A stretch of 64,000 bases of DNA from Candidatus Hermodarchaeota archaeon (GCA_048885925.1 JBHLLG010000002.1:64001-128000); one strand, 5' to 3'; numbered from the stretch's first letter, positions 36,857 to 54,078 are shown. Made by a program: numbers and translations. The notes: generated by a model not told the origin, from the sequence alone.

Positions 36857-37231
36857 TTATTTAGTTTTTAATTTTATTAAATCAGAATCTCCAAAATCAA
36901 AAACTCCTATAACAGAAATCATATAAGGTTTAGCACACGCTAATCCTAAATCCCAGCTTGATCCTTTGTATTTATAGATAAAGACTTTATCTTTCAAAAG
37001 AGAATTATAGTGATTTAATTGATTTATCAATTCTAATGGACAATTTTTGCTTACAATGAGCATTTTAAAGGGATTTTTTCCTCTTAAATTTTTTAATACT
37101 TGGTTTTTGCCATAAATTATTTTACCCGTCTTATAAGCAACTTTGATATTTGTGTCAACATCAAATTCTTTGACTTTTTTTCTGCTCAGATCAACTTTTT
37201 CAATGGTATCTTTACTTGTTCTTTTCCCCAT
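36857..37231 (-). CDS. rpl30e: 50S ribosomal protein L30e
   Basis: KTGKIIYG, NCP, YKGSSWDLGLACAKPY, GDSD. Confidence 0.93.
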   Translation of the reverse strand: MGKRTSKDTIEKVDLSRKKVKEFDVDTNIKVAYKTGKIIYGKNQVLKNLRGKNPFKMLIVSKNCPLELINQLNHYNSLLKDKVFIYKYKGSSWDLGLACAKPYMISVIGVFDFGDSDLIKLKTK

Positions 37232-52139: not shown

Positions 52140-52628
52140 TTAGAGAGATCTCTGCATCCAAATTATATCAAAAGTCCGTCCAAACTTTTTAGCAATATTT
52201 TTAAATCTTCCACATTCAATAAAACCATGTTTTTTATGGAAATTTAGGCTTTGCTCATTTAAAGAGGATAAATGAATAAAAAGTAAACGGACTCCATTTT
52301 CATTGGCATATTCAATTAATTTATTTAATAACCTTGTACCAAAACCTTTATTAGTATATTCTGGTTTAATAAAATAGCTTATTTGTCCTGTATGCATGAA
52401 ATTATCATAAGGTAAATAATTTTTTATAAATGCAAAACCACTTATTTTCTTTTCAATTTCTAAAACGACAAATGATAAACATTCTTGACGTAATTGACTG
52501 ATAAAATTAATTTTAACTTCTTTTTCAGAGTAAGCAGCAAAACCATTTAAAATATAATTATTATAAATTGAAAGAACATCGTTTAAGTCTGAATTTTTAA
52601 CTTTCCTAATTCGAAATTCAAAAGCCAT
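52140..52628 (-). CDS. GNAT N-acetyltransferase (phosphinothricin acetyltransferase/YncA-like)
   Basis: IYNNYI, KGFGTRLL, NEQSLNFHKKHGF, KFGRTFDIIWMQ. Confidence 0.88.
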   Translation of the reverse strand: MAFEFRIRKVKNSDLNDVLSIYNNYILNGFAAYSEKEVKINFISQLRQECLSFVVLEIEKKISGFAFIKNYLPYDNFMHTGQISYFIKPEYTNKGFGTRLLNKLIEYANENGVRLLFIHLSSLNEQSLNFHKKHGFIECGRFKNIAKKFGRTFDIIWMQRSL

Positions 52629-52726
52629 AATAAAATATTAAATAAATTAATTTTTTGAAGTTTTACATTTTAAATAAAATAGAATTAAAAAAATGAAATA
52701 TATAATCCTAAGACCTTTGCATGGTT

Positions 52727-52762
52727 GTCCTTAAGCATCTCGTTTTTTCATACTTAATTCAT
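52727..52762 (-). promoter_or_regulatory. Eukaryote-type SECIS element in the 3' UTR of the selenoprotein gene
   Basis: mRNA: AUGA-A-UUAAGUAU-GAAAAAACGAG-AUGCUUAA-G-GA-C, i.e. AUGA/GA core, 8-bp stem and A-rich apical loop, starting 2 nt after the UAA stop. Confidence 0.85.
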
Positions 52763-52764
52763 TC

Positions 52765-53292
52765 TTAATTAGGATTTTTGATATATTTATCAATTAGGAG
52801 TAACATCGCACTTACTGAAGGTCTGTCTGTTTTATCTCTTCCTATGTATTTCCATACAATTGTCCCATTTTTATCTATTAAAAATTTGCTCGGTACAGCT
52901 TGTTTTACTTTAAGTTTTCCCCAACCTTCTGCAAACCAATACACATTATAATCCTTAGCTATTTTAGCTCCACGGTCTGAAATCATATCTACTGGAAATT
53001 TATTTTCTTCTTTAAACTTTCTTAGTAATCCAATTGTGTCGCTTGCAATTGAAATAACTTTAACATTTCTTTTTTCAAACTCATGAAATTTTTTCGTTAA
53101 ATTCTCTAGTTCTTCTTTTCAATAACTTCACCAAGTACCACGAAAAAAAACAATCAATACTGCATTATGATTTTGAATGAGATTAGATAAATTAACTGGA
53201 TTACTAAATATATCTACTGTATTTATCAAAGGTGCTTGAGTATGCAATGATAATCCCCTGGGTCTCATTTCTTCTTCTTTCTTTAAAGCCAT
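52765..53292 (-). CDS. Selenoprotein: AhpC/TSA (peroxiredoxin-like, thioredoxin-fold) protein with UxxU motif, 175 aa
   Basis: GAGGT SD; ATG 53292; MALKKEEEMRPRGLSLHTQAP...VLIVFFRGTW-TGA-SY-TGA-KEELENL...VKVISIASD...MISDRGAKIAKDYNV...AVPSKFLIDKNGTIVWKYIG...RPS; in-frame TGA at codons 55 and 58. Confidence 0.9.
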
Positions 53293-53544: not shown

Positions 53545-54078
53545 TTAAGTTCCGAATTTTTCAAAAAGAACTTCTGTCAAAACTTCAAATGCTTTTTCTA
53601 CGTTTTCTCCAGTTTTGGAAGATAGTTCTACAAAAGAAGCTAAATTATACTTTCTTGCAGCTAATATCCCATCATCTCGAGGAACAGCTCGAAACTCATA
53701 TAAATCCAATTTAGAGCCAATCAACATTATAGGGATGTCACCGGAATGTTCTCTAATTACTTGAGTCCAATCGGGTAAGTGATCTAATGAGGTTTGATTA
53801 GTGATATCATATAAGAAGAATGCTCCATTTGCCCCTTTACTATATTGTGAAAGTAGAAATCGAAACCTTTCTTCTCCACCAAAATCCCAAATCTGTAATT
53901 TTACTTTTTTATCTTTAAAATAAGTGGTCTTAGAATAAAAATCAACACCTATAGTCAATTTGAGGTCTTCCATGAAGTATCCTGAAATATATCTCATTGT
54001 AAGGGATGTTTTACCCACTGATGCATCACCTAACATCATGATTTTAAAAGTATAATCGTAATCTGTCATTACTTTCAA
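53545..54078 (-). CDS. Rab-like small GTPase
   Basis: YDYTFKIMMLGDASVGKTS, TIGVDF, KLQIWDFGGEERFR, SKLD, LSSKTGENV. Confidence 0.93.
   Translation of the reverse strand: MKVMTDYDYTFKIMMLGDASVGKTSLTMRYISGYFMEDLKLTIGVDFYSKTTYFKDKKVKLQIWDFGGEERFRFLLSQYSKGANGAFFLYDITNQTSLDHLPDWTQVIREHSGDIPIMLIGSKLDLYEFRAVPRDDGILAARKYNLASFVELSSKTGENVEKAFEVLTEVLFEKFGT

Follow-up and report, generated by a model that had tools for sequence, protein, structure and literature searches.

The window analysed here is a 64,000-nucleotide stretch of DNA from a Candidatus Hermodarchaeota archaeon (GCA_048885925.1, JBHLLG010000002.1:64001-128000, positions counted from its first letter), and on its minus strand lies a peroxiredoxin-like (Prx-like) gene, prxL, that contains two in-frame TGA codons and is followed directly after its stop codon by a small hairpin. 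We conclude that this hairpin is very probably the selenocysteine insertion sequence (SECIS) of a Prx-like selenoprotein mRNA from a Lokiarchaeia-type (Promethearchaeia) Asgard archaeon, and that it would be of the type I, eukaryote-like form called lokiSECIS. Elements of this type were matched in the window's genome only at the ends of TGA-containing genes. A prediction made from the sequence alone, referred to below as the sequence-only reading, had proposed such an element here and had supposed that it served both UGAs.

Under translation table 11 the gene at 53292-52765 (minus strand) is broken at the two TGA codons. With TGA translated as selenocysteine (Sec, U), the open reading frame (ORF) pieces at 52765-53292 join into 175 codons plus TAA, giving a single 175-residue protein with W-U-S-Y-U at residues 54-58. 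The first TGA is codon 55 (53128-53130) and the second, three codons on, is codon 58 (53119-53121), and both are predicted to be read as Sec. Pfam matches to AhpC-TSA (PF00578, 4e-25) and Redoxin (4.4e-20) both run across both TGAs, and the protein contains no Cys. In the main text of PMC4989117, PrxL.1 carries Sec in place of both redox Cys and has no Cys elsewhere, and the AhpC/TSA-Redoxin fold, the redox box with Sec at both Cys positions and the lack of Cys elsewhere are all seen in the window's protein, marking it as PrxL.1-type. Its top NCBIfam match is SelL_rel_redox at 62.9 bits, under the cut-off of 120. The gene and element were also found to be identical in DNA contigs from four runs of one study, although one of these runs is a possible source of the assembly and the contigs are therefore not independent.

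The TAA stop codon (52765-52767) sits inside an internal loop, and after a spacing of 2 nt (GA) on the minus strand comes the AUGA of the SECIS core (52759-52762), the 5′ half of a GA/GA quartet. Helix II and its apical loop occupy 52730-52758, and the helix has nine positions, consisting of an A.G and eight pairs. In its 5′ arm (52758-52750) the first A stands opposite G and the next eight positions are paired, the sole G.U being U52752.G52736. The 11-nt apical loop (52749-52739) reads G, six A, then CGAG, and the 3′ arm (52738-52730) is followed by the GA at 52729-52728, which forms the 3′ half of the quartet and precedes an invariant C. The sequence-only reading had picked out this AUGA/GA core 2 nt past the stop, with an 8-bp helix including one G-U and an adenosine-rich loop, and every part of it was found on the minus strand. 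It had also suggested a lower helix overlapping the end of the coding sequence (CDS), and this proved to be a perfect 8-bp duplex, whose covariation is described below, between a 5′ arm within the last three codons (N-P-N, 52776-52769) and a 3′ arm at 52711-52704. The internal loop that holds the stop codon separates this lower helix from the AUGA. The 3′ strand carries a further small hairpin (52713-52725), placed below the core and above the lower helix, with three pairs here and four in most relatives. When the 81-nt stretch was folded with RNAfold, the lower helix, the upper helix and the 3-bp hairpin between them made up both the minimum-energy and the centroid fold. The element is AT-rich (28% GC), and just past it the mRNA strand has seven consecutive T (52687-52693), which may be an archaeal oligo-T termination site; T-rich runs also trail the element in the flanks of its relatives.

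In the main text of PMC4989117 the lokiSECIS is described as an AUGA, a 9-bp stem, an 11-nt loop with leading adenines and a last G preceded by A, and a GA, all near the stop codon, and the stem model in the main text of PMC11227280 allows 7-15 bp with at most two mismatches. The window's element has a stem of nine positions, a GA 3′ of the stem, an A-rich start to the loop and AG at the loop's end, as expected of type I. According to the main text of PMC11227280, Prx-like selenoproteins occur in 43.2% of Sec-using Asgard archaea and type I eukaryote-like SECIS (eSECIS-like) elements are the major form.

A search for related loci returned 17, comprising four distant bacterial homologues and 13 Asgard loci from metagenome-assembled genomes titled Promethearchaeota or Promethearchaeia, with one titled Odinarchaeota. 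The orthologues are 56-79% identical and carry a redox box of UxxU or UxxC. The first redox position is TGA in 13/13 Asgard orthologous loci, and the second is TGA in eight and Cys in five (8 UxxU, 5 UxxC). The same pattern was seen in held-out paralogues, where the first position is TGA in all 14 whose alignment covers the site and the second is TGA in 9/14 and Cys in 5/14. In-frame UGA is aligned to Cys at the second TGA position in those five of 13 orthologues, and at both positions in the distant homologue L082. Across 300 genomes of the phylum, prxL was present in 55, most of them from the window's own family (39 of its 67 genomes); all matches of at least 40% identity that cover the motif have one or two TGAs, and no close Cys-only orthologue was found among the 300. 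One orthologue (L021) has a TGA at the position of the window gene's TAA stop.

The sequence-only reading had stated that loss of the hairpin behind TGA-containing orthologues would speak against it. The element was present behind the gene in 43/43 fetched orthologous loci, and behind 15/16 held-out paralogue loci. Some of the 43 are one place fetched twice and several contain tandem prxL copies, each with its own element, so that 45 distinct copies were collected. These were aligned without gaps, leaving register shifts in the lower helix (alignment A1). Invariant columns in A1 are the AUGA (45/45), the closing U-A pair of the upper helix, three adenines and the last G of the loop, the A of the GA and the C that follows it. 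The 3′ dinucleotide of the core is GA in 44 of the 45 copies and AA in one, and the first loop nucleotide is G in the window and in 19/45 copies, with A or U in the rest.

Covariation across the orthologous 3′ ends, which the sequence-only reading had named as a check, was found in both long helices. In A1, helix II is paired in 93.6% of cells with compensatory changes in 7/8 pairs, and the lower helix is paired in 80% with 7/8 pairs changed on both sides. The small hairpin is paired in 89.9% of cells and has compensatory changes in one of its four pairs. The A1 covariation score of 0.428 was reached by 0/500 column shuffles, a count that overstates significance since the relatives are not independent, and controls with slid partners gave at most 0.141. 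RNAalifold predicted the same three helices from A1 with no structure supplied. The window itself takes part in this pattern, as its U-A at the third lower-helix pair from the top is a compensatory double change (CG:35, UA:3, UG:3). A second alignment, A2, was made from 21 held-out matches to the covariance model R1 introduced below; being fitted to the model it favours the structure, and with that bias it is paired in 87.2% of cells with 19/20 pairs compensatory, the lower helix being changed on both sides in 8/8 pairs and the small hairpin being 91.1% paired with 3/4 compensatory. The lower helix covaries although its 5′ arm is coding, which argues for selection on the pairing. The sequence-only reading had also raised a competing fold, in which the 3′ arm pairs with a downstream GUCUUAG, and this gained no covariation support. 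Pairing of the 3′ arm plus GA-C with the beginning of the lower 3′ arm is possible in 80.7% of cells, yet 442/500 column shuffles do equally well, and the fold's covariation score equals the shuffled mean, so the pairing arises by composition only and the fold was rejected.

To carry the comparison beyond prxL we used R1, a covariance model built from A1; the window's copy is in the training set and E-values are rough. R1 matched 15/16 held-out paralogue loci that contain TGA or are truncated, with scores of 49.8-76.6 bits and each match at the gene end; the one it missed is L079, a UxxU gene from another order. In the 64-kb window it gave exactly one match (87.1 bits), the runner-up scoring 15.9 bits (E 0.15). 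Since this is the only such element in the window, one element for two UGAs, as the sequence-only reading had it, is the reading that fits. The main text of PMC4989117 likewise has one element acting on several UGAs, including both Sec of PrxL.1. Elsewhere in the window's genome (G000; 3.9 Mb, 29% GC, 95% complete), full-length R1 matches of 19.3-57.1 bits lie behind four MvhD genes, an HdrA-like gene and one small gene; this whole-genome search scored 150 of about 4276 candidates and missed three known elements, which were recovered by direct search. In 120 other genomes of the phylum, with 38 candidates scored per genome, R1 found matches in 15/15 of the window's family and in 2/105 outside it. 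R1 gave no match to the selD 3′ region of the window's genome (G000:C42:5700-5913, minus strand; L005), where by eye we saw an AUGA, a short stem, an adenine bulge and a mini-stem, that is, a type II-like element, and its being type II-like and missed by R1 is consistent with the literature.

Geometry and folding energy say less than position does. A strict geometry scan of the whole genome returned 13 matches, against 7.05 ± 2.6 in 20 dinucleotide shuffles, so the geometry pattern by itself is not specific, and when the A-rich loop was demanded as well there were 9 matches against 1.45 ± 1.1 in shuffles. Six of the 13 geometry matches sit at the very end of TGA-containing genes. Beside prxL these are five genes with a pair of TGAs apiece, four of the MvhD/VhuD family (PF02662) and one of the FAD/4Fe-4S HdrA-like kind. 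The other seven matches lie within ordinary frames and do not have the loop features. Taken by itself, the core hairpin has a folding energy of -5.0 kcal/mol (z -4.17, equalled by 1/200 shuffles), and the 81-nt element has one of -12.4 kcal/mol (z -2.12, equalled by 4/200), so that both pass the folding filter of -5.0 kcal/mol applied in PMC4989117 and PMC11227280, the core hairpin exactly at the limit. The deciding evidence is position and conservation; the energy only partly exceeds chance.

A further question is how much of the structure the element needs. The core hairpin could be the entire functional SECIS, with the lower helix and the small 3′ hairpin as passengers copied while SECIS elements spread between genes, and we rate the chance of this at somewhat under even. 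The 2016 description in the main text of PMC4989117 asks only for AUGA-stem-loop-GA, and the main text of PMC11227280 models core, upper stem and loop only and reports no highly conserved flanking nucleotides across families. The MvhD element L099 of the window's genome is without the consensus small hairpin, and covariation of that hairpin in A1 is thin. Set against this are the strong covariation of the lower helix in both alignments despite its coding 5′ arm, and the recurrence of lower helix and small hairpin behind unrelated genes, these being PrxL, MvhD, the HdrA-like gene and the small membrane protein, in full-length R1 alignments. We put forward, as a possibility we would not yet count on, that the SECIS unit in this Lokiarchaeial family consists of three helices: the kink-turn hairpin, an ACC/GGU mini-hairpin on the 3′ strand and the covarying lower helix. 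Just as tentatively, the three helices may form a platform recognised by an archaeal SECIS-binding factor, with its overlap with the termination site coupling the availability of the SECIS to ribosome traffic at the stop codon.

Two explanations would do away with a SECIS altogether. In the first, the hairpin belongs to some other class of kink-turn RNA, such as a C/D-box small RNA (sRNA) or an L7Ae-binding regulatory site, unrelated to UGA recoding. Kink-turns generally carry a signature of the AUGA/GA type, so this part of the core is generic, and the sole Rfam matches over the element at E <= 10 are to snoMe28S-U3344 (21.5 bits, E 0.49) and snoR21 (21.8 bits, E 2.6). Those scores are far under the gathering scores of 50 and 45, however, and neither a C box (RUGAUGA) nor a D box (CUGA) is found in 52800-52629. 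Together with the restriction of the element type to the ends of TGA genes in the genome and its absence from all 16 TGA-free homologue loci searched with R1, this makes such an RNA highly improbable. The second explanation, a mere 3′-end stability or termination hairpin with the TGAs as real stops of a dead or split gene or read without a SECIS, draws on the hairpin's place directly past the stop, the T-run next to it and its unexceptional energy in context, and can be set aside as scarcely credible, because a stability hairpin would not hold the AUGA, three loop A, final loop G and GA-C constant across 45 copies with a covarying stem, and a dead gene is unlikely when the first TGA is kept in every orthologue and every paralogue covering it and the Pfam matches cross both TGAs. 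Archaeal termination requires no hairpin, and a scan for bacterial-type terminators gave 0 sites, which is uninformative for an archaeon. TGA is otherwise a normal stop across the genome, ending 276/1989 long frames, of which 257 close again within 60 codons.

Some observations weigh against a SECIS at this position. In its 111-nt context the element has modest stability (z -0.83, with 37/200 shuffles as stable), and the energy of the core hairpin is exactly at the literature's limit. Rfam gives no SECIS match: its SECIS families have no match at gathering score in the window and none at E <= 10 over 52400-53100, and around the element there are only sub-threshold snoRNA and L10-leader matches. 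This miss is expected, since tools for eukaryotic and archaeal SECIS do not detect such elements according to the main texts of both PMC4989117 and PMC11227280. The control with Cys-only homologues is a weak one. R1 had no match at E <= 1 in 16 TGA-free distant homologue loci, but these are at most 36% identical and are mostly TxxC/SxxC peroxiredoxins or unaligned at the motif, with a single CxxC homologue aligned there. An equal presence behind Cys-only orthologues, which the sequence-only reading had counted against itself, was seen in 0/16 of these homologues. A 27%-identical gene with a W-U-Q-H-U motif from another order (L079, G234:C25:2100-3180) has no R1 match, nor was the type I pattern found within 400 nt of its stop, and its SECIS may be of a different form. 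Both the kink-turn and the factor that would bind it are inferred, and Sec use is experimentally proven only in methanogens, according to the accessible text of PMC9622424.

The Sec machinery of the genome adds to both sides. Above their cut-offs were selD, with one in-frame TGA (176.7 bits), and SepSecS (478 bits), and an EFsec-like gene (G000:C8:76648-77568), noted on the same contig as SepSecS, scored 234.9 bits, where the cut-off for bacterial SelB is 242. Directly upstream of SepSecS there is a tRNA-Sec candidate (G000:C8, about 83690-83810, plus strand; L001:1462-1578) whose anticodon is UCA. Its anticodon stem has 6 bp and its T stem 4 bp, and the CCA is encoded. On the other side, no PSTK was found above cut-off in the 95%-complete genome (best 26.6 bits), and the tRNA-Sec candidate reaches 34.1 bits in Rfam, under the cut-off of 47. 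Its 9-bp acceptor stem also needs an insert in the D-arm region, a putative intron, to be removed, which differs from the Loki tRNA-Sec of the main text of PMC4989117, where a 31-nt intron lies in the T loop. ARAGORN called no tRNA-Sec in the window or the whole genome, with or without introns. It did report a tRNA-Pro with a 1335-nt intron that spans the candidate, and we regard this call as spurious. The genome has only two small genes with an L7Ae domain and no SBP2-like protein. One of the two lies within the window (36878-37156, minus strand, 39.9 bits) and the other is at G000:C2:151-384. With SBP2 absent, these small L7Ae-family kink-turn binders are the obvious candidates for SECIS partners.

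If the hairpin is a SECIS, it would most likely work as follows. The AUGA and GA would form a kink-turn-like quartet of sheared G.A pairs, to which a factor would bind; candidates for it are the archaeal EFsec and the two small proteins of the L7Ae family. Once bound, this factor would deliver EFsec-GTP-Sec-tRNASec to a ribosome paused some 365 nt upstream, at UGA55 and then, three codons on, at UGA58, and in this way a single element would yield a U-x-x-U redox centre capable of forming a diselenide. As the lower helix and the core are within reach of the terminating ribosome, the element would have to melt at each termination and refold for the ribosomes that follow.

The gene family with its two-Sec box and the element, including its use for two UGAs at once, appeared in print in 2016 and were covered by a survey in 2024, so the window's example is a good but ordinary one and adds no new principle. 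It shares its defining features, its host gene and the one-element-two-UGAs arrangement with the lokiSECIS of PrxL.1 in the main text of PMC4989117 and with the prxL type I eSECIS-like element in that of PMC11227280. A 2026 review lists UxxC/UxxU Prx-like proteins in its accessible text (PMC13188914), and a full-text literature search for the term "lokiSECIS" returned PMC4989117 only. What the two main texts do not describe is the lower helix of prxL, which their figures and SECIS supplements may show: "lower stem" and "internal loop" have no occurrences in the main text of PMC4989117, and in that of PMC11227280 "hairpin" does not occur and lower-stem features are given for frhA and selD only. 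The small hairpin on the 3′ strand is likewise described in neither main text, and it too may be shown in figures or supplements.

Set beside other SECIS systems, the element has a mixed character. The part of the sequence-only reading that called it eukaryote-like holds for its appearance and probably for how it works, but not for membership, as the element does not belong to the Rfam eukaryotic SECIS families (E <= 10). Its upper helix is shorter than in eukaryotic SECIS, and it lies 2 nt from the stop, whereas vertebrate SECIS lie 0.2-5.2 kb from the Sec UGA (both from the main text of PMC4989117). It also differs in carrying the extra small hairpin on the 3′ strand and in the lack of SBP2, which we did not find and which the main texts report none of. 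Like methanogen SECIS it has a 3′ untranslated region (3′-UTR) site in an archaeon and goes with the same Sec synthesis pathway (SepSecS, SelD); unlike them it is AT-rich and without GC-rich stems, and the methanogen GAA_A pattern of PMC11227280 had 0 matches in 52800-52629. The protein resembles metazoan SelL as described in the main text of PMC4989117, with a Prx-like thioredoxin fold, two Sec two residues apart and a single SECIS. The host here is archaeal, however, and the SelL-related match of 62.9 bits falls below 120, so the protein is not a SelL-family member by the NCBI threshold.

Asgard SECIS elements are a proposed link between archaeal and eukaryotic Sec decoding, and clean examples such as this one support that picture. 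The extra conserved parts of the element offer concrete mutational targets on the way to an archaeal SECIS-binding factor. R1, with the lower helix and small hairpin included, finds the SECIS of unrelated selenoprotein genes in the family very cleanly, and given its 15/15 against 2/105 inside and outside the family it is able to flag overlooked selenoproteins.

The small gene matched by R1 in the window's genome lies outside the window and is an ORF of 80 codons (G000:C11:36831-37151, plus strand; L065:1261-1581). Its product has a membrane helix at the N-terminus and a Gly-rich linker, and the one in-frame TGA falls within G-x-G-U-G-C. The gene's R1-type SECIS scores 44.2 bits and begins at the TAA. 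In eleven homologues, from G000 and ten other family genomes, the TGA is without exception conserved in G-U-[GA]-[CG] and an R1 match lies on the gene's strand at or near the frame end. Ten of them have a conserved tail past the TGA, and L112 ends two codons beyond it. Neither the TGA nor an R1 match is present at a twelfth locus (L117), which looks like a false match. The protein has no Pfam family, is not among the seven Asgard selenoprotein families in the main text of PMC11227280 and is not named in the accessible text of PMC4989117 or PMC9723677. From these sequence features we regard it as a candidate for a new family of small membrane selenoproteins.

The HdrA-like gene (G000:C11:60140-62269, minus strand) has 678 codons with two TGAs and its own SECIS 11 nt past the stop (L123, L098:356-436). 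It stands alone, unlike the HdrA-VhuD element of the 2016 description (main text of PMC4989117), which is shared.

Tandem duplication of prxL, with copies about 700 nt apart and a complete element per copy, was seen in L016, L017, L018/L034, L020, L021 and L037. Of the four tandem pairs with a scored upstream copy, three consist of one UxxU copy and one UxxC copy. In the window, prxL is followed downstream by a GNAT acetyltransferase (52628-52140), and the gene next to it upstream (53545-54078, minus strand) encodes a small GTPase of the Ras/Rab-like type (PF00071, 2.1e-46), as is typical of Asgard archaea.

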